Assembly (NCBI GenBank): GCA_017853315.1
Contig: JAFMJW010000003.1
Span: forward strand, 4,537 to 68,536
Direction: 5' to 3'
Length of the DNA stretch: 64,000 nucleotides
Origin: Alphaproteobacteria bacterium
GTDB lineage: Bacteria > Desulfobacterota > Binatia > UBA12015
The notes under the pieces are model-generated. The model made no database searches. It was given only the letters and a program-made list of their open reading frames with translations, and was not told the DNA's origin. Each line of letters opens with the position of its first letter. Positions within the stretch are counted from its first letter, which is position 1. Shown piece by piece: positions 4,460 to 50,910 of this stretch. The position numbers and the translations under genes are program-made.

Positions 4460-7245
4460 GTTCCATGTCCCCCGAGAACCGTGCCCGCAGCGTGCTCGTC
4501 GCCGTGCTCGCGACGGCGCTCGCGGGCTGCGCGGCGAAGACCCCGGCAGGGCGCGGGGCACCGCGGGCCGGCGCGGCGGCGCCGGGCGGGGACGTCGCGG
4601 TCTCTGCGCCTTCCTCCCCGGCCGCGGCCGAGGGACTGCTCTCGCGGCTGCTCTCGCCCATCGCCGGCCTGTGGCCCTTCGGCGGGGGGAAGGGCGACTC
4701 CGCGGAGTCCGCCGACCGCGCGTCCGGCTCCGGATCGATCGCCGCCGCGGCCGGCGGCTCCGACAAGGACCTGCCGCCCGACCCGTCGAAGGCGTCGGTG
4801 CTGCGCCCGAGTCGCCGTGCGCCCGATCCCGACCGGTGGCTCTCCTCGCAGCCCGGGCTGCGCAGCCCGCTGCCGCTGCTGGCGGTGGTCGAGCCGGTCC
4901 GCAGGGTGGCGTCCGCCGCCGACGCGGCGGAGCCCGAGAGCGGGTTCCACGGTCGCGCGCCGCGCGTCTCGGGCGACGCGCCCGTGATCGGCGCGATCGC
5001 GATCGAGGGCAATCACCGCGTCGACAAGGAGGCGATCCGCGTCCACGTGAAGAGCCGCGCGGGCGAGCCCTACGACGCGCAGCGCGCCGACGAGGACCTC
5101 CGCGCGATCTACGCGATGGGCTTCTTCGACGACGTGTCGGTCGACCTCGAGGAGGGAGCCGGCCGGCCCGCGCTCGTCTTCCACGTGAAGGAGCGTCCCT
5201 ACGTCTCCTCGGTGAAGGTCGAGGGCACCGACAGCCTGAAGAAGGAGGACGTCGAGACCGCGCTCAAGACCCGCCCGCGCACGATCCACGACCCCGAGAA
5301 GGTCCGTCGCGGCATCGCCGACGCGCGCAAGTTGGCCGAGGAGAAGGGCTACCTCGACGCGAAGATCACGCCGGTCCTGAAGCCGATCCCCGGCACCGAC
5401 GACGTCGAGCTCGTCTACCAGGTCGACGAGGGCCGCAAGATCCTCATCGCGGACCTCGAGTTCGAGGGCAACGAGCACTTCAGCGACCGCAAGCTCGCGG
5501 GCGTGATGCAGACCTCGGAGAAGGGCTGGCTCTCGTTCCTCACCGGGTCGGGGACGCTCAACCGCGAGATCCTGAAGACCGACGTCGAGCGGCTCACCGC
5601 CTTCTACTACGACGACGGCTACGTCGGCGTGAAGATCGACGAGCCCGAGGTCACGCGAGACGGCGACCGGCTGAAGGTGCGGATCAAGATCGACGAGGGC
5701 GATCAGTTCGACTTCGGCGAGATCAAGCTCTCCGGCGACGTCCCGCCCGGACCCGAGGCCGACGAACTCGCCAAGGAGATCCAGTCGAAGAAGGGCGAGA
5801 CCTTCCGGGCGAGCGCGCTCCGCGAGGACGTGACGACGCTCACCGACCTCCTCGGCGACCAGGGCTACGCGTTCGCGAACGTCGAGCCCGAGACGCTGGT
5901 CCGCCCCGAGGAGAAGACCGTCGACGTCGCCTTCCGCGTGAGCAAGGGCAAGCCCGTCACGATCGGGCAGATCGACGTCACCGGCAACACGAAGACCCGC
6001 GACAAGGTCATCCGCCGCGAGTTGCGCGTGGCCGAGCAGGAGCCGTTCTCGGCGACCCAGTTGCGCAAGAGCAAGGAGGCCCTGCAGCGCCTCGGGTTCT
6101 TCTCGGAGGTCGACGTCACGACCCGCAAGGGGGCGACCGACGACCAGATCGACCTCGCGGTCGACGTGAAGGAGGGCTCGACCGGCGCCTTCAGCGCGGG
6201 CGCGGGCTACAGCTCGGGCGACCAGTTCCTGTTCAACGTCCGGCTCTCGGAGAACAACCTCTTCGGCCGCGGCCAGCGCGCGGTGCTGAACGCCGACTTC
6301 GGCACCATCCGGCGCAACATCTACCTCTCGTACACCGAGCCCTACCTGTTCGACACGCGCCTGCTCGGCCAGGGCACGATCTTCAACACCGGGCTCAACT
6401 ACGGCGACTTCACCCGCTCGGCGACCGGCTTCTCCCTGCGCGCCCTCTACCCCTTCGAGGAGATCGGCTTCGGGCGTCTGGGGTGGCTCTCGCTCGAGGA
6501 CACGAGCTTCGGCCTCGAGTACCGGCTGGAACAGGCGCGGATCTACGACATCTCCTACAACGCGCCGCCGGCGATCTGGGCCGAGCAGGGCGAGACGGCG
6601 ATCTCGGCGATCTCGCCGCAGATCCTCCGCAACACGCTGAATCACGCCTACGACCCGACGTCGGGCTCGTTCCAGGACATCTCGTTCGAGTTCGCGGGGC
6701 TGGGCGGCGACCAGACCTACTGGCTCGCGCAGGCGCGCACGCGCTTCTTCTGGCCGATCTACCGGATCCGCGACTTCGGGGCGTTCGTCTACTCGATCGG
6801 CGGCACGGTGGCCTACGGCAAGGGCGAGGCCGGCCTCTCGGGCAACGAGATCCCGCTCGTCCAGCGCTTCTTCCCCGGCGGCATCAACACCGTCCGCGGC
6901 TACAACATGCGCACGCTGGGCCCGCGCCAGGACACCTACAACCCGCAGGGAATCGTGATCAACAACCGGCCGATCGGCGGCACGAACGAGCTCGTCGTCC
7001 AGAACGAGATCATCTTCCCGATCTTCCAGCCGATGGGCATCCGCGGCGTGGTCTTCTTCGACGCCGGCAACGCGTTCCTCCAGGCGCAGGGCATCGACTT
7101 CGGCGACCTTCGCTACGGCGTCGGGGCCGGCATCCGCTGGCTTTCGCCCTTCGGCCCGCTCCGCATCGAGTACGGCATCCCCTTGAACCTCCAGGACAAC
7201 GAGTCGAAGAGCTCGGTCATGTTCTCGTTCGGCGCGCCGCTGTGA
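4456..7245 (+). CDS. bamA: Outer membrane protein assembly factor BamA (Omp85) with an unusual ~160-aa N-terminal low-complexity extension carrying a lipobox
   Basis: 929 aa. The ATG at 4456 overlaps the lolD stop (ATGA). The N-terminus reads [16 protein letters not shown] (a lipoprotein-type signal with Cys), followed by an Ala/Gly/Pro/Ser-rich tract. POTRA repeats then start ([21 protein letters not shown]...), and a C-terminal Omp85 barrel ends the protein (...[27 protein letters not shown]). Confidence 0.9.
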
Positions 7246-7289
7246 CGGTCCCGCCGGCGCCGATTCCCCAGAAGAAGGAGAAGAAGTCC

Positions 7290-7820
7290 ATGAAGACGGT
7301 CAGCTCGGTGCGCATCGCGGCAGTCGCCCTCCTGGCGGTCGCGACCCTTCCGGTCGCGGTTCGCGCGGCGGAGACGAAGATCGCGGTCGTCGACCTGCAG
7401 CGCGCGCTGAACGAGTCCGAGGCGGGCAAGCGGGCCAAGTCGGACTTCAAGGTCCGGGCCGACAAGCTCGAGTCCCAGCTGAAGGGCCAGAAGGACGAGC
7501 TCGACCGCATCAAGAACGACTTCGAGGCCAAGCAGTCGGTGCTGAAGGACGAGGAGCGCCGGAAGCTCGCCACCGACTTCGAGAAGAAGCGGCTCGACCT
7601 GAAGACCAAGTTCGAGGAGGCGCAGGGCGAACTCGCCAAGCGCGACCAGGAACTGACCGCGCCGATCATGAAGGGCCTCCAGGAGACCATCAAGCAGATC
7701 GCGGAGGTCGAGGGCTTCTCCCTCGTACTCGAGTCGAACTCGGCGGGCGTGGTCTACCACCTGCCGAGCGTGGACATCACCGACCGCGTCCTGTCGGCGT
7801 ACAACGCCAAGGGCAACTGA
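7290..7820 (+). CDS. skp: Periplasmic chaperone Skp (OmpH)
   Basis: ATG at 7290 lies in frame in the 3' part of ORF 4671..7820. The signal peptide is MKTVSSVRIAAVALLAVATLPVAVRAAE. The body is a Lys/Glu-rich coiled coil (KIAVVDLQRALNESEAGKRAKSDFK...) and the gene sits in the classical bamA-skp position. Confidence 0.85.
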   Translation: MKTVSSVRIAAVALLAVATLPVAVRAAETKIAVVDLQRALNESEAGKRAKSDFKVRADKLESQLKGQKDELDRIKNDFEAKQSVLKDEERRKLATDFEKKRLDLKTKFEEAQGELAKRDQELTAPIMKGLQETIKQIAEVEGFSLVLESNSAGVVYHLPSVDITDRVLSAYNAKGN

Positions 7821-42792: not shown

Positions 42793-43227
42793 ATGACCAA
42801 GCGAGAGCTCATCGAGGAAGTCGTCCACGCCCGCACCGATCTTCCGCGGCGCGAGGTGGAGGCGCTCGTGAACGGCGTGTTCGACACGCTGTCGGACGCG
42901 CTCGCGCGCGGCGAGCGCATCGAGATCCGCGGCTTCGGCAGTTTCATCGTGAAGCGGCGCAACGCGCGCGAGGGGCTGAACCCGAAGACCGGCCAGGTCG
43001 TCGCGGTGCACGCGAAGCGCGTCGCCTTCTTCAAGGCCGGCAAGGAGCTCAAGCAGCGAGTCGACTCGCGGCCGGTCGACGGCGTCGCAGTCGACGGCGT
43101 CGCGGTCGAGGCGACGCGCAAGGCGGAGCCCGCGCGCACGCGCACGCCGTCGCGCAAGCCCGCGTCGGCGACGCCCGAGGTCGCGCGCGCGTCCTACGGA
43201 ATGGCGGCCGCCGGGGGCGAAGAGTAG
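42793..43227 (+). CDS. ihfB: Integration host factor subunit beta, with a ~50-aa C-terminal extension
   Basis: The ATG at 42793 lies in frame in ORF 42733..43227. Motifs MTKRELIEEV...GERIEIRGFGSF...NPKTGQVV...FKAGKELKQRV, and it follows rpsA as in E. coli. The extension contains the tandem repeat PVDGVAVDGVAVE. Confidence 0.8.
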   Translation: MTKRELIEEVVHARTDLPRREVEALVNGVFDTLSDALARGERIEIRGFGSFIVKRRNAREGLNPKTGQVVAVHAKRVAFFKAGKELKQRVDSRPVDGVAVDGVAVEATRKAEPARTRTPSRKPASATPEVARASYGMAAAGGEE

Positions 43228-43303
43228 CCGGGGCCGCGCCGCGCCGATCGGCCGCGACGGCGGTCCCTCGGCCCGCGCCGCCGCCGATGGAGCGGGAAGC
43301 GCC

Positions 43304-44707
43304 GTGATGGGTGCCGCGACGACGCTAGGAGGGCTCCGCGCCGCCGGCGTCCGGACCCGCCGGGTCCGCGACGAACTCCGTCGCAACCTGCTCGACCGGC
43401 TGTCGCGGGGCGAGCGCATCCTTCCCGGGATCGTCGGCTACGACGACACGGTCGTGCCCGACGTCGAGAACGCGATCCTCGCCGGGCACCACATGGTGCT
43501 GCTCGGGGAGCGCGGGCAGGCGAAGTCGCGCATCATCCGCGGGCTCGTCGAGCTGCTGGACGAGGAGGTGCCGGCGGTCGCGGGCTGCGAGATCCACTGC
43601 GACCCCTACGCGCCGATCTGCGCGCCCTGCCGAGCGCGGGCCGCGGAACTCGGCGAGGAGCTCCCGGTCGCCTGGCTGAGGCGGGAGGACCGCTACGGCG
43701 AGAAACTCGCGACGCCGGACGTCTCGATTGCCGACCTGATCGGCGAGATCGACCCGATCAAGGTGGCCGAGGGGCGCTACCTCGCCGACGAGACGACCAT
43801 CCACTACGGTCTCGTGCCCCGGACGAACCGCGGCATCTTCGCCATCAACGAGCTGCCCGACCTGATGGAGAAGATCCAGGTCGGACTGTTCAACCTGATG
43901 GAGGAGCGCGACGTCCAGGTGAAGGGGTTCAAGATCCGGCTGCCCCTCGACGTCGTCATCGTCGCGAGCGCGAACCCCGAGGACTACACGAGCCGCGGTC
44001 GCATCGTCACGCCGCTGAAGGACCGCTTCGACGTCCAGATCCGCACCCACTACCCGCGGTCGGTCGAGGAGGAGATCGCGATCCTCGAGCAGGAGGTCCC
44101 GCTCGGCGAACGCGACGGGCGCGAGGTGCGCCTGCCGGGCTTCATGCGGGAGATCGTCGCGCAGCTCACGTTCGAGGCGCGGCGCTCCCCGGAGGTGAAC
44201 CAGTCGTCGGGCGTGAGCGTCCGCATGACGATCAACAACCTGGAGACGCTGGTCGCGAACGCGGAGCGGCGGGCCGCCCGGCTGGGCGAGCCCGAGATCG
44301 TCCCGCGGCCCTGCGACCTGCACGCGCTCTCCGCGTCGATGGCCGGCAAGCTCGAGATGGAGGTCGGCGGCGACGACCGCGTCGACGAGAACGCGGCCCT
44401 CGAGCGGTTGGTGAGCCGGGCCGTGCTCGCCGTGTTCGACCGCGCCACCTCGGTCGAGCGCCTGCGCCGCGTGGCCGAGTGGTTCGAGGGCGGCGGCGGC
44501 GTCGAGATCTCCGACGCCATGCGCGCCGAGGAATACCTCGAGGGTGTGCGGGGCATCCCCGGGCTCCGCGAGGCGATCGCGGAGATCGGGCCCTTCGAGT
44601 CGCCCGCGCTCGTGGCCGCGGCGACGGAGTTCCTGCTCGAGGGCCTCCACCTCCACCAGAAGCTCAACAAGGATCTCGAAGGCGGGCGCGCGACCTACCG
44701 CGCCTGA
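43304..44707 (+). CDS. ChlI/BchI-like (Mg-chelatase-type) AAA+ ATPase with a cysteine-cluster insertion
   Basis: 467 aa. It has a degenerate Walker A HHMVLLGERGQAKSRI (Ala in place of the second Gly). A CEIHCDPYAPICAPC insert follows. The sensor/arginine-finger region is FAINELPDLMEKIQVGLFNLMEER...IVASANPEDYTSRGRIVTPLKDRFD. It is paired with a downstream vWA protein. Confidence 0.75.
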   Translation: MMGAATTLGGLRAAGVRTRRVRDELRRNLLDRLSRGERILPGIVGYDDTVVPDVENAILAGHHMVLLGERGQAKSRIIRGLVELLDEEVPAVAGCEIHCDPYAPICAPCRARAAELGEELPVAWLRREDRYGEKLATPDVSIADLIGEIDPIKVAEGRYLADETTIHYGLVPRTNRGIFAINELPDLMEKIQVGLFNLMEERDVQVKGFKIRLPLDVVIVASANPEDYTSRGRIVTPLKDRFDVQIRTHYPRSVEEEIAILEQEVPLGERDGREVRLPGFMREIVAQLTFEARRSPEVNQSSGVSVRMTINNLETLVANAERRAARLGEPEIVPRPCDLHALSASMAGKLEMEVGGDDRVDENAALERLVSRAVLAVFDRATSVERLRRVAEWFEGGGGVEISDAMRAEEYLEGVRGIPGLREAIAEIGPFESPALVAAATEFLLEGLHLHQKLNKDLEGGRATYRA

Positions 44708-44734
44708 GCCCGCGAAGGCACCGGGACCGTCGAC

Positions 44735-46339
44735 GTGGTCCGGATCCGCTACACCGCCTGGGACGGGACGCAGACGGTCCGGCTCGACCCGGACCGCGTC
44801 TTCGACGCGCTCGCCGACCTGCTCTCGCGCACGGACGACCTCCGCCAGGCCCTCGACTGGCTGCTGCGCGAGGGCCTCGACATGGACGGCGTCCGCGTCA
44901 TGGGCCTCGACGAGGCGCTCGAGCGACTCCGCGAAGCGATCCGCTCGCGCGAGCGCGACCTGAATCTCGACCACGCGCTCGACGAGCCGCGGAAGAGGCT
45001 CGACGAGATCCTCGCGCGCGAGCGGGAGACGCTCGACGAGGGCATCGAGGGGGACGCCGACGGCACGCTCGCGCGGGAGAAGAAGGCGCTCCTCGACGAC
45101 CTCCCGGCCGACCTCGCCGGCGCGATGGAGCGGCTGGCGCGCGACTACCGCTTCGAGGACGAAGAGGCCGAGCGGGCCTTCCGTGAGCTGATGGAAAGCC
45201 TCGACGACGTGCGCTCGGTCGAGGACTTCCGGCGCGCGGAAGGCGACCGCTTCCGCGGTCCGCGCGACCTCGACTTCCGCGAGGCCGCCGACCTCGTGCG
45301 GGAGATCGCGGCGCTGCGCGACCTCGAGCGACGCCTCGCGAGCGGCGACCTGCCGGGCCTCGACATGGACGTCGTCCGGCGGATGCTGGGCGAGGACGTC
45401 GCCCGCGACCTCGAACGACTCGGGCAGGTGATGCTGCTCCTGCAGGGGGCCGGCTACCTCCGCGAGCGCGAGGGGCGGGTCGAGCTTTCGGCCCGGGGAG
45501 TCCGGCGGATCGGCGCGCTCGCCCTGCGCGACATCTACGACGCGCTGGTCCGCGACCGGCCGGGAGGCCACCCGAGCGGAGCCCGCGGCCCCGGCGAGCC
45601 GCGGCACGACCGGACCCGCCGCTGGGAACAGGGGGATGCGCTCGACGTGGCGCTCGTCCCGACCCTCCTGAAAGCGCTCACCCGCTGGGGTGGCACCCCG
45701 GTCTCCATCGAGCCCCGGGACTTCGAGGTCCGTGAGACCGACCAGGCCGCGACGACCTCGACGGTCCTGCTGCTCGACATGAGCTGGTCGATGAGCTGGG
45801 AGGGTCGATTCGCGGCGGCGAAGAAGGTCGCGCTCGCGCTCGAGAGCCTCGTGCGCACCCGCTTCCCGCGCGATTACTTCGGGATCGTCGGCTTCTACAC
45901 GCGCGCCGTCGAGCTCCGTGCGCGCGACCTGCCGGAGGCGACCTGGAACGTCGGCGACCCGTTCACCAACCTGCAGGACGGTCTCCGGTTGGCCGGGCGG
46001 ATGCTCGCGAAGCACCCGAGCCGCAACCAGCACGTGATCGTCGTCACCGACGGGCAGCCGACCGCGTACTTCCACCGCGGGCGGCTGCACTGCGAGTGGC
46101 CGCTCTCCTACGGCGGGGTCTCGCTGCGCGCGTCGGCCGAGACCCTGCGCGAGGTCGAGCGGGTCACGCGTCGTGGCATCACGATCAACACGTTCATGCT
46201 CGACGACTCGCCCGGCCTGCGGGCCTTCGTCGAGCGCATGACGCGCATCAATCGCGGCCGCGCCCTCTACAGCCGCCCGGACCGGCTCGGCGAGTACCTC
46301 CTGGTCGACTACCTCGGTCGCAAGCGCAAGCGGATCTGA
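44735..46339 (+). CDS. von Willebrand factor A (vWA) domain protein (CoxE/BchD-C-terminal-like), with an acidic coiled-coil N-terminal region
   Basis: 534 aa. The GTG at 44735 lies 27 bp after the ATPase stop. The C-terminal vWA has the MIDAS motif VLLLDMSWSMS and HVIVVTDGQPT. The N-terminal ~330 aa are rich in D/E/R/L. Confidence 0.75.
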   Translation: MVRIRYTAWDGTQTVRLDPDRVFDALADLLSRTDDLRQALDWLLREGLDMDGVRVMGLDEALERLREAIRSRERDLNLDHALDEPRKRLDEILARERETLDEGIEGDADGTLAREKKALLDDLPADLAGAMERLARDYRFEDEEAERAFRELMESLDDVRSVEDFRRAEGDRFRGPRDLDFREAADLVREIAALRDLERRLASGDLPGLDMDVVRRMLGEDVARDLERLGQVMLLLQGAGYLREREGRVELSARGVRRIGALALRDIYDALVRDRPGGHPSGARGPGEPRHDRTRRWEQGDALDVALVPTLLKALTRWGGTPVSIEPRDFEVRETDQAATTSTVLLLDMSWSMSWEGRFAAAKKVALALESLVRTRFPRDYFGIVGFYTRAVELRARDLPEATWNVGDPFTNLQDGLRLAGRMLAKHPSRNQHVIVVTDGQPTAYFHRGRLHCEWPLSYGGVSLRASAETLREVERVTRRGITINTFMLDDSPGLRAFVERMTRINRGRALYSRPDRLGEYLLVDYLGRKRKRI

Positions 46340-46501
46340 ACGAGCCGTCGCGCCCGGCGCTTCGGGGGGGGAGCGCTCGCACGCGTCACGTCGGCGCGCC
46401 GTCGCGGCCGTCGCGAGGCTCTCGCCGGGGGAGGTTTGCGGACCTCGGCCGGGGCGTGCAAGAGAGGTGACGCGGTGTTCCGCGACGGGCGGCGCACCGC
46501 G

Positions 46502-46535
46502 GGCGAATGCGGGGCGATTCGTTCCCGCATTCGCC
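46502..46535 (+). promoter_or_regulatory. Perfect 12-bp inverted repeat (hairpin) in the vWA-mutS intergenic region
   Basis: ggcgaatgcggg-gcgattcgtt-cccgcattcgcc. It lies ~160 nt after the vWA stop and ~110 nt before the preferred mutS ATG. It could act as a terminator or an operator-like element. Confidence 0.3.
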
Positions 46536-46642
46536 GGGAGCGCGGGCGGGTGGGGCGCCGCGCAACGGTCGGGAAGGCGGGGGCGAGGTTGACCGCAGCG
46601 TCGCAGTCGGAGCAGGGGCGGAGACCGGCCAAGCTCACGCCG

Positions 46643-49207
46643 ATGCTCGTCCAGTACCTCGACGTGAAGCGTCGGGCGGGCGATGCCGTCCTGTTTTTCC
46701 GGCTCGGCGACTTCTACGAGATGTTCTTCGAGGACGCCGAGCGCGTGGCACCGCTCCTCGACCTGACGCTCACCTCCCGCAACAAGGACGATCCGAACCC
46801 GATCCCGATGTGCGGGGTGCCGGTCCACGCGGCGCAGGGATACGTGAGCCGGCTGGTGCAGCTCGGCGTGAAGGTCGCGATCTGCGACCAGATCGGGGAC
46901 CCTGCGACGCAGCCCGGCCTGGTCGAGCGGGGGCTCACCCGCATCATCACCGCCGGCACGGTGCTCGACGAGGACGAGGGCCTCTCGGGCGGGCAGCCGG
47001 GCTACCTGGTTGCCGTCGGTCCCGGGCGCGGCGACGGCACGATCCCCATCGCGACGGTGGACGTCTCGACGGGCGAGGTGCGGTGCTGCCGCGCGCCGGA
47101 CTTCGCGCGCGCGCGCGAGGAGATCGGCCGGCTCGCGCCACGCGAGGTGCTGCTCGAGCCGGGCGACGATGCCCTCGCCGCGGCGGCCACGGAGGCCGGC
47201 TCCGTGGTGACGCGCCCCTCGGCCGTGGGCTCGACTCCCTCGGAGGCGGGGGACCCGCTCCTCGAGGGGCTCGACGAGGATCTCTCCGCCTCGCTGGGCC
47301 GGGCGCTCGCCTATCTCCGCGACACGGTGCGCGGGGGACTCGGTCACCTCCGGCGGCCCGTGGTCTACGAGGTGAGCCGGCATCTCGCGATCGACGACCG
47401 CACCCGGCGCAACCTGGGCGTCCTCGAGGGGCCGCGCGGCGGGCGCCACGGCTCGCTCTGGTGGGCGCTCGACGACACGCGCACGGCGATGGGGTCGCGC
47501 GTGCTCCGCGACTGGCTCGTCGCGCCTTCGGTCGAGCTTCCCGTCGTCCTGGCGCGGCAGGACGCGATCGCGGCGCTGGTCGATGCCCCGGGCTGGCGCA
47601 CCGATCTGGCCGACGCGATCGCACCGGTCGGCGACCTCGAGCGACTCGTGGGCCGGCTCGCGGTGGGACGCGGTGGCCCGCGCGAGGTGGCCCGGCTCGG
47701 CCGCGCGCTGGCGGCCGCCGCCGCGGTGGCGGCCCTGCTGCCGGCGGGCGGCCTCCCCGCGCCGCTGGGCGAGATCCGCGCCACGGTCGACCCGCCGCCC
47801 GGGCTCGCCGAGCGGATCGCGTCGACGCTCGCCGACGAGCTCCCGCTGCAGGCGAGCGAGGGCGGGCTCGTGCGCAGCGGGGCCGACGCGGAGGTCGACC
47901 GCCTGCGGGCGTTGCGCGGGGACGCGCAGGCCCTGCTCGCGGCCCTCGAGGCGCGCGAGCGGGAGGCGACCGGCATCGGGTCGCTGCGCATCCGCTACCA
48001 GCGGGTCTTCGGCTACTTCTTCGAGGTCACGAAGGCGAACCTGAAGCTCGTCCCGCCGCACTTCACGCGTCGCCAGACGCTCGCCTCGGCCGAGCGCTTC
48101 ACGACCCCGGAACTGCTGGAGCTCGAGCGCGAGCTCGCCGGGGCCGAGGATCTCTGTCGCCGCCGCGAGGCGGCGATCTTCGCGGCGCTGCTCTCCGAGG
48201 TGGTCGGCGAGCAGGCGCGGCTCGCGACGCTCGCGCACGCGATGGCGGAGCTCGATGCGCTGGTCGGACTCGCGTCGGTCGCCCACGAACGCGGCTACGT
48301 CCGGCCGGAGGTCCACCGCGGCCGGCGCCTCGAGATCCGCGACGGCCGCCACCCGGTCGTCGAGCGCACGTCCGCGGCCGGGAAGTTCGTGCCCAACGAC
48401 ACGGTGCTCGACGACGACCGCGAGCAGATCGTCGTGCTGACCGGGCCGAACATGGCGGGCAAGAGCACCTACCTGCGACAGGTCGCGCTGGTCGTGCTGC
48501 TCGCGCACGCGGGCAGCTTCGTCCCGGCCGGCTCCGCGAGCGTCCCGCTCACCGACCGCATCTGGACCCGCGTCGGCGCCGCGGACGACCTCGTGGCCGG
48601 CGACTCGACCTTCATGGTCGAGATGAAGGAGACGGCCGCGATCCTCGCCGACCTGACGCCGCGCACGCTGGTCGTGCTCGACGAGATCGGCCGAGGCACG
48701 AGCACCTACGACGGGATCGCGATCGCGTGGGCGGTCGCGGAGCATCTCCACGACCTGGAGCCGGTGCCCGGCTCGCGGGTGAAGACGCTGTTCGCGACGC
48801 ACTTCCACGAACTGACGGCGCTTGCCGACCACCTGCCGCGGGTCCGCAACCAGTCCGTCGCGGTGCGGGAGTGGCGCGACGACGTGCTGTTCCTCCGCAA
48901 GGTGGTGGCGGGGCCGGCGAGCCGGAGCTTCGGCGTCTCGGTGGCGCGACTCGCCGGCGTGCCGGACGCGGTGGTCGCGCGTGCACGCGCGCTCCTGCAG
49001 GGCCTCGAGGCGGGCTCGCCGCTCGCCGGCGGGCCGCCGGTCCATCCGCGCCGGGCGGCGGCGCCGACGAATCAGCTCGACCTGTTCGCCGCGGGGCCGA
49101 GCGGGCTCGAGGCGGAGGTCGCGTCGATCGACGTCGACCGGATGACGCCGATCGAGGCGCTCGCGCGCCTCCACGAACTCGTCGAGCGGGCCAAGGGCGG
49201 CCGATGA
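46643..49207 (+). CDS. mutS: DNA mismatch repair protein MutS
   Basis: MLVQYLDVKRRAGDAVLFFRLGDFYEMFFEDAERVAPLLDLTLTSR (mismatch-binding domain). Walker A GPNMAGKSTYLRQ and STFMVEM...DEIGRGTST. The ATG at 46643 is preferred; the ORF track extends upstream to 46436. Confidence 0.9.
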   Translation: MLVQYLDVKRRAGDAVLFFRLGDFYEMFFEDAERVAPLLDLTLTSRNKDDPNPIPMCGVPVHAAQGYVSRLVQLGVKVAICDQIGDPATQPGLVERGLTRIITAGTVLDEDEGLSGGQPGYLVAVGPGRGDGTIPIATVDVSTGEVRCCRAPDFARAREEIGRLAPREVLLEPGDDALAAAATEAGSVVTRPSAVGSTPSEAGDPLLEGLDEDLSASLGRALAYLRDTVRGGLGHLRRPVVYEVSRHLAIDDRTRRNLGVLEGPRGGRHGSLWWALDDTRTAMGSRVLRDWLVAPSVELPVVLARQDAIAALVDAPGWRTDLADAIAPVGDLERLVGRLAVGRGGPREVARLGRALAAAAAVAALLPAGGLPAPLGEIRATVDPPPGLAERIASTLADELPLQASEGGLVRSGADAEVDRLRALRGDAQALLAALEAREREATGIGSLRIRYQRVFGYFFEVTKANLKLVPPHFTRRQTLASAERFTTPELLELERELAGAEDLCRRREAAIFAALLSEVVGEQARLATLAHAMAELDALVGLASVAHERGYVRPEVHRGRRLEIRDGRHPVVERTSAAGKFVPNDTVLDDDREQIVVLTGPNMAGKSTYLRQVALVVLLAHAGSFVPAGSASVPLTDRIWTRVGAADDLVAGDSTFMVEMKETAAILADLTPRTLVVLDEIGRGTSTYDGIAIAWAVAEHLHDLEPVPGSRVKTLFATHFHELTALADHLPRVRNQSVAVREWRDDVLFLRKVVAGPASRSFGVSVARLAGVPDAVVARARALLQGLEAGSPLAGGPPVHPRRAAAPTNQLDLFAAGPSGLEAEVASIDVDRMTPIEALARLHELVERAKGGR

Positions 49208-50910
49208 GGGCCTCCCGGGCGACGATCGGCCTGCTCGCGGCCCGTGCGATGGCGGTGGTCGCCCTCGTCGCACGATCGGCCGTGGCGGCCCCGGTCCCCC
49301 CGAAGGCGACGGTGAACCGCGTCGACTGGTCCACGACGCCCGGCGGGGCCCGGGTCTCCGTCCAGGTGGGCGGCGGCGAGGTGCGATGGAGCGGGGGGCG
49401 TGCGGCGGCGAGCCCGGCCGACGGCCTCCCCGAGCGGGCCTTCGTCGACGTCCGGCCGGCCGTGCTGTCGCCGTCCCTCACGCGCTCGCCGGTGTCGATC
49501 GACAAGGGGCTGCTGAAGCGGGTCCGCGTGGGACAGAACGACCCGGAGACCGTCCGGGTCGCGATCGAGCTCGCCGGGCCGGTGGTGGTGGAGATCCGGG
49601 GCGAGAAGTCGCCGCCGCGGATCGTGATCGACCTGCGCGCGAACGCGGACGCGCCGGGTGCGACGGTGTCGTCGCCGCCGGCGACGACGGGTGCGGGAGC
49701 GCGTCCGCCCGCGGCGGCGGTGGGCGCCCCGGCCGCGGTCGCACCGATCCTCCCTCGCGTGGCGAGCGAAGCCCCGACGCCGACGCGCACGCCGGGGGCC
49801 GCGACGCCGACGCCCTGGGCGCCGACCGCGACGCCGCCGTGGTCCTGGACGCCGACGCCGTGGGCGCCGACGCCCACGCCGTGGATCCCGACCCCGACGC
49901 CGACGCACTGGATCCCGACCCCGACTCCGACCCGGACCCCGTGGCTTCCGACTCCGACGTTCCCGGCTCCTGTGCTCGTCTCGCCGACTCCCGCTGCGAC
50001 TGCATGGATCCCGACCCCGACGCCGGCGGCGTGGGTGGCGACCTCGGCCACGCCGACACCGGGCGAGGGCGGCCCCCGAGACTGGCGCGACATGTACGGC
50101 GGGGTGGCGACCTCGCCCTCGCCGGTCCCGACCGCTCCCGATGCGGGCCGCGGCGAGACCCTGCTCCTACCGACCGTTCCCGAGGAGGTGGTTCCGCATC
50201 GTTCCCGCGGCCACCGCGTCGTCGTGCTCGACCCGGGGCACGGCGGCAAGGATCCCGGGGCGCAGGGCCCCTCCGCCGTCGAGGAGAAGCGCATCACGCT
50301 CGCGGTCGCCCGCCTCGCCGCGGCGCGCCTGCGCAAGCTCGACCCGAACGTCAAGGTGCTGCTCACCCGCGGCGGCGACTCCTACGTCGCCCTGAAGGAC
50401 CGGACGGCCTTCGCCAACGCGAAGGGTGCGGATCTCTTCGTCTCGATCCACGTGAACGCGGCCGAGAACGCGGACTCCTCGGGGATCGAGACCTACACGC
50501 TGAACAACAGCAACGACCGCGCGACCAAGCGGCTCGCGGCGATGGAGAACGGGCTCTCCGAGGCCGGGATCGAGCGCGACGACAAGGACCTCGCGTGGAT
50601 CGTGAGCGACCTCCTGCAGACCGGGAAGGAGGGCGAGTCGATCGTGCTCGCGGAGAGCCTGCAGCGCGAGACGGTGCGGTCGGTTCGGCGGCGGTGGTCC
50701 GATGCCGAGAGCCTCGGCGTGAAGAAGGGCCCGTTCTTCGTGCTGGTCGGCGCCTACATGCCGTGTGCGCTGATCGAGACCGGGTTCCTCACCAACTCCC
50801 GGGAGTCCGGGAGGATCGGGACCCAGCCCTACCAGGAGGCGCTGGCCGACGGGATCGCGAGGGGCATCCTCGCGTTCTTCGCCTCCGGGGAGGCCAACTC
50901 GAACCTGTGA
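49204..50910 (+). CDS. amiC: N-acetylmuramoyl-L-alanine amidase (AmiC-like): signal peptide, AMIN domain, Pro/Thr/Trp-repeat linker, then Amidase_3 catalytic domain
   Basis: The ATG at 49204 overlaps the mutS stop (ATGA). The signal peptide is MRASRATIGLLAARAMAVVALVARSAVAA. The AMIN domain shows VRVAIELAGPVVVEIRGEKSPPRIVIDL. The linker is TPTPWAPTATPPWSWTPTPWAPTPTPWIPTPTPTHWIPTPTPTRTPWLPTPT. The catalytic domain has VVLDPGHGGKDPGAQG...LFVSIHVNAAEN...GPFFVL. Confidence 0.85.
   Translation: MRASRATIGLLAARAMAVVALVARSAVAAPVPPKATVNRVDWSTTPGGARVSVQVGGGEVRWSGGRAAASPADGLPERAFVDVRPAVLSPSLTRSPVSIDKGLLKRVRVGQNDPETVRVAIELAGPVVVEIRGEKSPPRIVIDLRANADAPGATVSSPPATTGAGARPPAAAVGAPAAVAPILPRVASEAPTPTRTPGAATPTPWAPTATPPWSWTPTPWAPTPTPWIPTPTPTHWIPTPTPTRTPWLPTPTFPAPVLVSPTPAATAWIPTPTPAAWVATSATPTPGEGGPRDWRDMYGGVATSPSPVPTAPDAGRGETLLLPTVPEEVVPHRSRGHRVVVLDPGHGGKDPGAQGPSAVEEKRITLAVARLAAARLRKLDPNVKVLLTRGGDSYVALKDRTAFANAKGADLFVSIHVNAAENADSSGIETYTLNNSNDRATKRLAAMENGLSEAGIERDDKDLAWIVSDLLQTGKEGESIVLAESLQRETVRSVRRRWSDAESLGVKKGPFFVLVGAYMPCALIETGFLTNSRESGRIGTQPYQEALADGIARGILAFFASGEANSNL
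49780..50075 (+). repeat. Imperfect tandem nucleotide repeat (acgccgacgccgtgg-type units) encoding a (T/P)n-W periodic linker inside the amidase gene
   Basis: Repeated units such as gacgccgacgccgtgggcgccgac, gcccacgccgtggatcccgaccccgacgccgacgcactggatcccgaccccgac, and ccgtggcttccgactccgacg are visible. A Trp recurs every 6-10 residues in a Pro/Thr background. Confidence 0.7.

Follow-up and report, generated by a model that had tools for sequence, protein, structure and literature searches.

An AAA+ ATPase and MIDAS-vWA protein of the Rv0958/Rv0959 family in a Binatia genome: a candidate two-component machine for protein remodelling or maturation

The question raised by this locus is what function is served by two adjacent genes, encoding an AAA+ ATPase and a von Willebrand factor A (vWA) protein, that lie between a gene for a DNA-binding protein of the IHF/HU type and mutS. 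The pair is located in a 64,000-nucleotide stretch (the window; G+C content, ∼74%) covering positions 4,537 to 68,536 of contig JAFMJW010000003.1, from an assembly labelled Alphaproteobacteria bacterium (GCA_017853315.1) and placed in the Binatia by GTDB. An earlier sequence-only reading had put the pair at this site, and both the list of open reading frames (ORFs) and the public gene calls agreed with that placement. The ATPase gene extends from 43304 to 44707 on the plus strand, as do all window features described below; the ORF list gives it a GTG start and 467 amino acids, while public annotation takes the ATG at 43307 as the start codon, for a product of 466 amino acids (P0001, a 100% identical public protein). 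The partner gene (44735 to 46339; 534 amino acids in the ORF list; P0127, a 100% identical public protein) is co-directional and starts 27 bp past the ATPase stop codon. Because of this short gap, the absence of any detected terminator-like site between the two genes in the window and the overlap of the corresponding ORFs in several related loci, the two genes are likely to be co-transcribed.

Assignment of the pair to a family was provided by the partner. Precomputed Pfam matches to PF27532 (Mb0984_helical), PF27098 (Rv0959_3rd) and PF13519 (VWA_2) placed this protein in the Mycobacterium tuberculosis Rv0959 family, and the same architecture was present on nearly all partner homologues among the 120 matches listed. 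The pair had thus already been recognised, as these Pfam entries are named for M. tuberculosis Rv0959 and M. bovis Mb0984. Rv0958/Rv0959 and MSMEG_5512/MSMEG_5511 share this partner architecture and have an ATPase of ∼465 amino acids encoded immediately upstream. An alignment was made of 81 ATPases from different genomes, and the motifs GERGQ[AG]K[ST] and NELPD were observed in 81 of 81, the family ATPases being ∼465 amino acids long and encoded directly upstream of the partner. Judged by these sequence features, the window pair belongs to the large, catalogued Rv0958/Rv0959 family, and we infer that its ATPase is orthologous to Rv0958. A pair from Tsukamurella (Mycobacteriales) was used as a stand-in for Rv0958/Rv0959 and exhibited 49% identity to the window ATPase and 29% identity to the window partner, with conservation of the vWA domain and basic tail of the latter. 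The Tsukamurella pair, named by NCBI as a "sigma 54-interacting transcriptional regulator" and a "VWA domain-containing protein," is separated from purN-purH, which lie upstream, by ∼3 kb containing four small genes. In M. tuberculosis, Rv0956 and Rv0957 are purN and purH, Rv0958 is annotated as a "possible magnesium chelatase" and Rv0959 as a conserved hypothetical vWA protein, and the order Rv0956 to Rv0959 matches that of Tsukamurella. Partners occur in a short form of ∼530 amino acids (the window and Binatia-like loci) and a long form of ∼670 amino acids (Actinomycetota, Chloroflexota and Rokubacteria), the latter being lengthened by a Gln- and Met-rich helical segment of ∼130 residues that the short form lacks. 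The window pair differs from the Rv0958/Rv0959 type in having a short partner without this segment and in having an ATPase with a cysteine triad plus a fourth cysteine, where the sampled actinobacterial ATPases have Ser/Ser/Ala or similar residues.

The family is widespread. More than 8,000 close homologues of the ATPase were detected at 90% clustering, most of the named ones being called "magnesium chelatase," and there were 978 representatives with an E value of ≤1e-30 at 50% clustering. A scan of one genome per species confirmed an ATPase locus in at least 597 species genomes. Eighty of the scan loci were kept and, together with the window region, formed a set of 81 loci, each taken with as much as 8 kb of DNA to either side; the 80 loci came from Binatia, Thermodesulfobacteriota, Rokubacteria, Chloroflexota, Dormibacterota, Limnocylindria and Actinomycetota, representing six or more phyla. 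A vWA partner was present in 67 of the 77 loci with enough flank, mostly directly downstream and on the same strand, and co-conservation of the pair across phyla, which the sequence-only reading had set as a test, was therefore directly observed. The family is not mobile: no match was found in IMG/VR viral contigs, and a search of 72,556 plasmid records produced four matches, all to non-mobilizable records of 0.4 to 11.9 Mb, with chromosome-type genes (purN/purH, ribosomal proteins and citrate synthase) in the two whose annotation was read.

In profile searches, the ATPase had weak scores against generic AAA+ models, with 28.7 bits for AAA_5 (the best Pfam match), 25.8 for Mg_chelatase, 20.6 for Sigma54_activat and 20.3 for AAA_3 (MoxR), the last being below the gathering score of 27. 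The score against TIGR02030, the BchI/ChlI equivalog, was 48.3 bits for a cutoff of 466.95, and because of this shortfall the protein is not classified as BchI/ChlI, as had been anticipated. The closest solved structure was ChlI (8osf; E value, 4.6e-10), ChlI/BchI structures ranged overall from 5e-10 to 3e-7, archaeal LonB was weaker and no structure of a member of the ATPase family itself was present among the PDB matches. Pairwise alignments with ChlI 8osf and BchI 1g8p spanned the regions of the helix-2 insert and the pre-sensor-1 hairpin, a part of the protein (residues 132 to 249) for which the AlphaFold2 model has a predicted local distance difference test (pLDDT) score of <50. Sensor 1 (NPE) and the arginine finger (DRF) are shared with the BchI/ChlI-BchD/ChlD system, as apparently are an insertion after the Walker A helix and the pre-sensor-1 hairpin. 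The window ATPase differs from BchI/ChlI in having an Ala in Walker A, an Asn in Walker B and an extra C-terminal helical domain of ∼100 residues (44366 to 44704; approximately residues 355 to 467). This family-specific extension was without an equivalent in BchI/ChlI, contained the conserved motif FESP...EF.LEGLH.HQKLNK, was modelled with a pLDDT of ∼85 to 95 over residues 360 to 455 and had no usable match in a Pfam scan at an E value of ≤10. These results are best explained by the ATPase forming a distinct family within the chelatase/MoxR branch of the AAA+ superfamily, whose members are marked by a helix-2 insert and a pre-sensor-1 hairpin. The earlier assignment of the two genes to the chelatase/MoxR type of AAA+/vWA pair was supported.

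Two further similarities of the ATPase were detected. Some family members had a sub-threshold likeness to the AAA domain of PrkA/YeaG (∼20 bits against a cutoff of 25) over approximately residues 145 to 295 (window positions 43736 to 44188), and the window protein had a weak similarity to archaeal LonB. As PrkA also has a vWA-like partner (YeaH/YhbH), a distant kinship is conceivable. A PrkA/YeaG-YeaH relationship was nevertheless rejected, since the PrkA-AAA and LonB scores were all sub-threshold and were restricted to the generic stretch from Walker B to the arginine finger.

The state of the nucleotide site was examined in the 81 ATPases and in a divergent set, A3, of relatives with 42 to 57% identity. 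The Walker A motif, GERGQAKS (43505 to 43528; residues 68 to 75), has an Ala where a Gly usually precedes the Lys. An Ala was present at this position in 73 ATPases and the canonical Gly in the other 8, and G68, G71, Q72 and K74 were invariant across A3; the P-loop that had been described as degenerate was present as read but is only a mild variant. A more unusual feature, overlooked in the sequence-only reading, was found in Walker B (IFAINELPD; 43835 to 43861; residues 178 to 186), where Asn182 replaces the canonical Asp and the catalytic Glu183 is kept. This Asn was found in 81 of 81 ATPases (INELPD), while in A3 both E183 and D186 were invariant and two divergent relatives had Asp or Gln at position 182. 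Sensor 1 (ASANPEDY; N224) and the arginine finger (LKDRF; R241), which together span 43958 to 44035, aligned with GSGNPEE...LLDRF of ChlI, and the sensor 2 region of the lid domain (QSSGVSVRM; 44201 to 44227) contained an R307 that was invariant in A3. Each of K74, E183, N224, R241 and R307 was present in all 81 ATPases, and all were also kept in the relatives at 42 to 57% identity. A working but unusual site fits better than a dead one, because the key residues are kept, Walker A toggles between Ala and Gly and one divergent relative has the canonical Asp in Walker B. We infer that the protein is competent as an ATPase despite Ala73 and Asn182.

A cysteine cluster (C95-x3-C99-x6-C106-x2-C109; 43586 to 43630) is part of an insertion after the Walker A helix, and alignment with BchI/ChlI pairs this stretch with the corresponding insertion there. 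The sequence of this cluster, CEIHCDPYAPICAPC, was confirmed in the window ATPase. The four-cysteine arrangement highlighted by the sequence-only reading is not, however, a family feature, as C99 was present in only 4 of the 81 ATPases, and on this alignment the four-cysteine form is peculiar to a small clade. The triad of C95, C106 and C109 behaved as an all-or-none element, with all three residues present in 42 ATPases, none in 36 and a partial set in 3. Most loci from Binatia, Rokubacteria and Dormibacterota and some from Chloroflexota had the triad, while almost every sampled actinobacterial locus, along with several others, had Ser/Ser/Ala or similar residues in place of the whole block. 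Conservation of the cluster had been put forward as a test of the original proposal, and the outcome was divided, with roughly half of the family keeping the triad and the other members having it substituted as a unit. The all-or-none pattern suggests that the three cysteines form a joint site, such as a metal site, and the absence of the block from many members shows that the core function is independent of it. A possible parallel to the triad is the redox switch of NorQ, in which ATP binding is prevented by a disulfide between two cysteines close to the P-loop (PMC13036017), and because of this precedent a redox switch is a real alternative to structural zinc. The best explanation of these data is that the triad is an optional, lineage-specific element, possibly a structural zinc site or a redox switch, that the core mechanism would not need.

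The partner has three recognisable parts. The N-terminal region (44735 to 45544; residues 1 to 270) is acidic, with 25% Asp plus Glu and an isoelectric point (pI) of 4.68, and residues 20 to 250 were predicted to be helical with a pLDDT of 80 to 95, in agreement with the acidic helical region described previously. Where the sequence-only reading had proposed a coiled coil, the model contained helical domains that include two helix-plus-hairpin units. The middle region (45545 to 45754; approximately residues 271 to 340) is the likely position of the Rv0959_3rd match. The C-terminal vWA domain (45755 to 46339; residues 341 to 534) is basic, with a pI of 10.5, and matched VWA_2 with 33.9 bits at residues 343 to 441. 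It contained a complete metal ion-dependent adhesion site (MIDAS), D348-x-S350-x-S352, T411 and D439, that was identical in 20 of the 20 family members checked, and a C-terminal MIDAS vWA domain in a 534-residue partner was thereby upheld. The vWA half was the most conserved stretch of the protein. The Lys/Arg-rich C-terminal tail, GRKRKRI in the window, was conserved across the short and long forms, as was the motif GY..REGR.ELS.KG.R.IG. A local Pfam scan of the partner detected VWA_2 only, with no AAA match, and there was no match to TIGR02031; a scan at an E value of ≤10 gave nothing usable for the N-terminal and middle regions, and a profile search of PDB sequences found no solved relative. 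Residues 290 to 441 aligned weakly with positions 419 to 582 of the cobaltochelatase model TIGR02442. A clue from fusion proteins was sought among longer homologues, and the sole extra domain, MASE10 on one partial metagenomic protein, was rejected as too weak.

We consider it reasonably probable that the pair is a two-component machine in which an AAA+ motor and a MIDAS-vWA adaptor act together in the remodelling or maturation of a client protein, because its anatomy fits the general design of AAA+/vWA machines. In such machines the MIDAS captures a client peptide and the force of the ATPase passes through charged helical linkers (PMC7159879), and in CobST the CobT shaft is inserted in the hole of the CobS ring (bioRxiv 10.64898/2026.07.21.739949). 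By analogy, the window ATPase would form a hexameric ring on which the partner might dock, with the conserved basic vWA domain and the C-terminal tail as the likely docking elements. The metal site of the MIDAS could then grip an acidic residue of the client, and ATP hydrolysis in the ring would deliver force through the acidic helical region, a likely lever or second client contact, such that the client would be pulled or twisted, with cofactor insertion or release of a bound factor as the possible outcome.

Comparison with known systems was informative in both directions. As in NorQ-NorD, CbbQ-CbbO and CobS-CobT, a small ATPase, predicted here to form a ring, is accompanied by a separate protein in which a linker connects an N-terminal domain to a MIDAS vWA domain at the C-terminus. 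This C-terminus matters for function in NorD and CbbO and is conserved in the window partner. In contrast, the operons of the clients (nitric oxide reductase [cNOR], Rubisco and cob genes) adjoin NorQ, CbbQ and CobS but not pairs of the window type, and a long finger insertion was not evident in the window vWA domain, for which the model has low confidence. The joining of an acidic region to a MIDAS vWA domain is shared with BchD/ChlD. The window partner differs from BchD in lacking an AAA+ module, and the locus differs from that of Mg chelatase in having no linked gene for an H subunit. A likeness to midasin (Rea1) was also present, in that AAA_5 was the best Pfam match and an Asp/Glu-rich region precedes the MIDAS, and the MIDAS domain of midasin docks on its own AAA+ ring. 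However, midasin carries six AAA modules on one very large polypeptide, and the homology observed between it and the window pair is at the domain level.

A number of observations weigh against a remodelling or maturation machine. The AlphaFold2 models of the two proteins were made from shallow alignments of 15 and 18 sequences, and both the AAA+ core (residues 132 to 249) and the vWA domain of the partner had a pLDDT of <50; because of these poor models, the mode of docking is argued from analogy. Foldseek searches of the PDB with both models gave no match at an E value of ≤0.001, and the partner model had a few weak matches of the vWA type, including NorD, but the low pLDDT of these two domains made the searches uninformative. 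The Asn in Walker B could mean altered or very slow hydrolysis, although Rubisco activase also tolerates an Asn at the same position. Ten loci had no vWA partner within the DNA examined (at most 8 kb to either side), consisting of four from Dormibacterota, three labelled Chloroflexi and one from each of three other groups (L043, L061, L062, L068, L071, L072, L079, L042, L044 and L047). Finally, all-against-all clustering of flanking ORFs from the 81 loci detected no third gene conserved across phyla beside the pair. This negative is in keeping with the earlier remark that nothing nearby suggests a client.

Searches of the literature on the family, including Rv0958/Rv0959 and the MSMEG genes, found no functional study, with the mycobacterial orthologues appearing only in omics lists. 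MSMEG_5512 is a high-scoring interactor of ClpC1 and was also listed from earlier ClpC1/ClpP2 knock-down and two-hybrid studies (PMC10433963), and the level of MSMEG_5511 was slightly lower in a pafBC mutant (PMC5656591).

One alternative is that the pair is the motor and adaptor, of the I/D or CobS/CobT kind, of a class I ATP-dependent chelatase acting on tetrapyrroles, with a CobN/BchH-type subunit encoded elsewhere in the genome. The best curated models for the ATPase were BchI/ChlI and "putative cobaltochelatase," the partner has the weak alignment of its pre-vWA and vWA regions with TIGR02442 and the ATPase is publicly annotated as "magnesium chelatase." Both model scores, at ∼48 bits, nevertheless fell some 10-fold short of the equivalog cutoffs (467 and 779 bits), the AAA+ module of BchD is missing from the partner and no CobN/BchH-like neighbour was conserved across phyla in the 81 loci. 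Similarly, an Rfam scan of the whole 64-kb window gave nothing at the gathering score (no tRNA, rRNA, riboswitch or known small RNA), and a scan of eight loci from several phyla detected no family, including the cobalamin riboswitch. In M. marinum, a screen for B12 resistance recovered one transposon insertion that lay 49 bp upstream of the orthologous gene and was not followed up there (PMC11237697), and production of Mg-porphyrin by Rv0958 was assumed in one paper (PMC10774309), whereas the ChlI-type chelatase component in lists of mycobacterial B12 genes is Rv2850c, beside cobO, and Rv0958 is not listed (PMC8192938). A chelatase role is accordingly held to be improbable. A role for the ATPase as a sigma-54-dependent transcriptional activator, the name given by the NCBI pipeline PGAP ("sigma 54-interacting transcriptional regulator") to the Thermomicrobium and Tsukamurella orthologues, has next to no likelihood. 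The Sigma54_activat score marginally exceeded the cutoff of 20.2 bits, but the match covered 59 of 168 profile positions in a generic stretch from Walker B to sensor 1, the GAFTGA loop motif was absent from the ATPase sequence, no C-terminal DNA-binding domain or helix-turn-helix was detected in Pfam scans and a vWA partner is something that enhancer-binding proteins do not have. Actinomycetota, in which the family is abundant, are as a rule not known to have sigma-54. The motif and domain tests effectively refuted this activator role. A similarly negligible chance is given to the pair being the core of a MoxR-vWA anti-phage or conflict system. Such systems are known to be built around MoxR-vWA pairs (PMC7159879), and some homologues had weak precomputed matches to bpMoxR (PF20030), but the window ATPase scored 20.4 bits for a cutoff of 27, PADLOC models matched neither protein and neither a third component (VMAP, iSTAND or similar) nor an effector gene emerged when the 81 loci were clustered. 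High sequence conservation and a stable gene order within lineages are, furthermore, unlike defence islands. Together with the viral and plasmid searches described above, these checks effectively excluded a defence system.

The most interesting possibility still standing is a specific version of the remodelling machine, in which the pair would act on a universal nucleoprotein machine (RNA polymerase, the ribosome or another) as a two-protein bacterial counterpart of midasin/Rea1. In such a case the MIDAS would extract or load a factor, and the Cys triad would confer sensitivity to zinc or redox state in some lineages. The hints are weak, and we regard this version as unlikely. The ATPase is 49% identical to the Mycobacteriales orthologue and 54 to 72% identical to those of the other phyla sampled, which fits a conserved client, and the order of acidic region and MIDAS domain resembles that of midasin. 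Two helix-plus-beta-hairpin units of the partner model (approximately residues 36 to 56 and 211 to 251; hairpins at 47 to 56 and 242 to 251) look winged-helix-like and, with the basic vWA domain and the Lys/Arg tail, may be consistent with a nucleoprotein client; this look derives, however, from the secondary-structure pattern of the model only and had no backing from Pfam profiles or the fold search. The housekeeping context of the window (rpsA, IHF and mutS) also appeared suggestive but was confined to Binatia-like loci, with purine biosynthesis genes upstream in Tsukamurella. MSMEG_5512 was recovered with M. smegmatis RNA polymerase by affinity purification-mass spectrometry, but such lists are noisy and the FLAG-tagged form pulled down no DNA (PMC7092591).

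The genes flanking the pair varied with lineage. In the window, the upstream IHF/HU-type gene (42793 to 43227; Pfam Bac_DNA_binding) and the downstream mutS (46475 to 49207; Pfam MutS_I to MutS_V) provide context and are outside the module. The public contig with the same pair has rpsA, an S49 peptidase gene and the IHF/HU gene upstream and mutS, an AMIN-amidase gene, glnD and a tyrosine recombinase gene downstream. The cell-wall amidase gene (AMIN/Amidase_3; 49204 to 50910) that follows mutS in the window encodes a long Pro/Thr/Trp-rich low-complexity stretch with TPTPTPW-like repeats between the AMIN and catalytic domains. An upstream IHF/HU ORF on the same strand was present only in the Binatia-like loci L002 to L028 and L049, mostly within ∼1.2 kb. 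A gene of the HIT family (Pfam HIT, 49 bits) was found just upstream of the ATPase gene in 20 Binatia-like loci (e.g., L007, positions 7158 to 7670), mostly, among L002 to L028 and L049, between the IHF/HU and ATPase genes. The window has no HIT gene, the distance from the IHF/HU gene to the ATPase gene being only ∼79 bp (gap, 43228 to 43303). As possible third partners, IHF, HIT and mutS (Binatia-like loci), purN/purH (Mycobacteriales) and a class III cyclase (some Acidimicrobiia) were each rejected as lineage limited.

The cyclase gene, for a class III nucleotidyl cyclase catalytic domain (∼183 amino acids; Guanylate_cyc, 25.8 bits), was present on the opposite strand between the ATPase and vWA genes of four actinobacterial loci, most with Acidimicrobiia-type labels (L074, 9447 to 9998; L070, 9436 to 10002; L078, 2998 to 3561; L052, 6245 to 6778; all on the minus strand). 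Its presence may be coincidental or might connect the pair with signalling by cyclic nucleotides in the lineage concerned. Locus L052 (CAMBWL010000009.1) is labelled as a metagenome-assembled genome of Bifidobacterium breve. In a comparison with L074 and L076, its pair and cyclase were near-identical to those of a contig labelled Acidimicrobium ferrooxidans, and its partner was ∼80% identical to the partner of an Ilumatobacteraceae metagenome-assembled genome; the B. breve label is probably wrong. In Dormibacterota-type loci lacking a partner (L043, L062 and L079), the ATPase gene was followed by conserved ORFs that by eye were DinB-like and EVE/PUA-like, and a gene resembling a glycerophosphodiester phosphodiesterase, also named by eye, was located upstream on the opposite strand in L043, L061, L062, L066, L068, L071 and L079. 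These three kinds of neighbour were rejected as partners, being found in Dormibacterota-type loci only. In Thermomicrobium roseum (L082, 6964 to 7872), the ATPase gene is preceded on its own strand, after a gap of 27 bp, by a gene for a 302-amino-acid protein annotated as "type II secretion system protein E." This protein had no Pfam match at an E value of ≤0.001, and the gene may be either mis-annotated or an accessory gene of that lineage. The PLSDB matches H2 to H4 (NZ_LT559118.1, NZ_LN868939.1 and NZ_LR134465.1; L083) are filed as plasmids and are chromosome- or fragment-like, the records being Nonomuraea (11.85 Mb), Nocardia (2.66 Mb) and Tsukamurella "plasmid 23" (purN, purH and a ribosomal protein block).

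Overall, the finding of the sequence-only reading was real and mostly well described, with the details of the Cys4 cluster and the P-loop corrected by the alignment of 81 ATPases. The window by itself adds little beyond a further member of an orphan family that was already catalogued, and the system is not of a new kind; the value of the finding is at the level of the family. AAA+/vWA pairs mature or repair Rubisco, nitric oxide reductase, CO dehydrogenase and the chelatases of chlorophyll and B12 synthesis, and the Rv0958/Rv0959 family, in which M. tuberculosis was counted by its partner Pfam domains and gene synteny, is among the most conserved of such pairs, with 49 to 72% identity of the window ATPase to those of the other phyla sampled. 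Two annotation names carried by its members, "magnesium chelatase" and "sigma-54-interacting regulator," were contradicted by the tests performed here. If the nucleoprotein-machine version were true, it would provide a function for a conserved gene pair of M. tuberculosis and of several poorly studied soil phyla. More generally, the identity of the client would explain a piece of core physiology in Actinomycetota, Chloroflexota, Binatia and their relatives and would fix a widespread annotation error.

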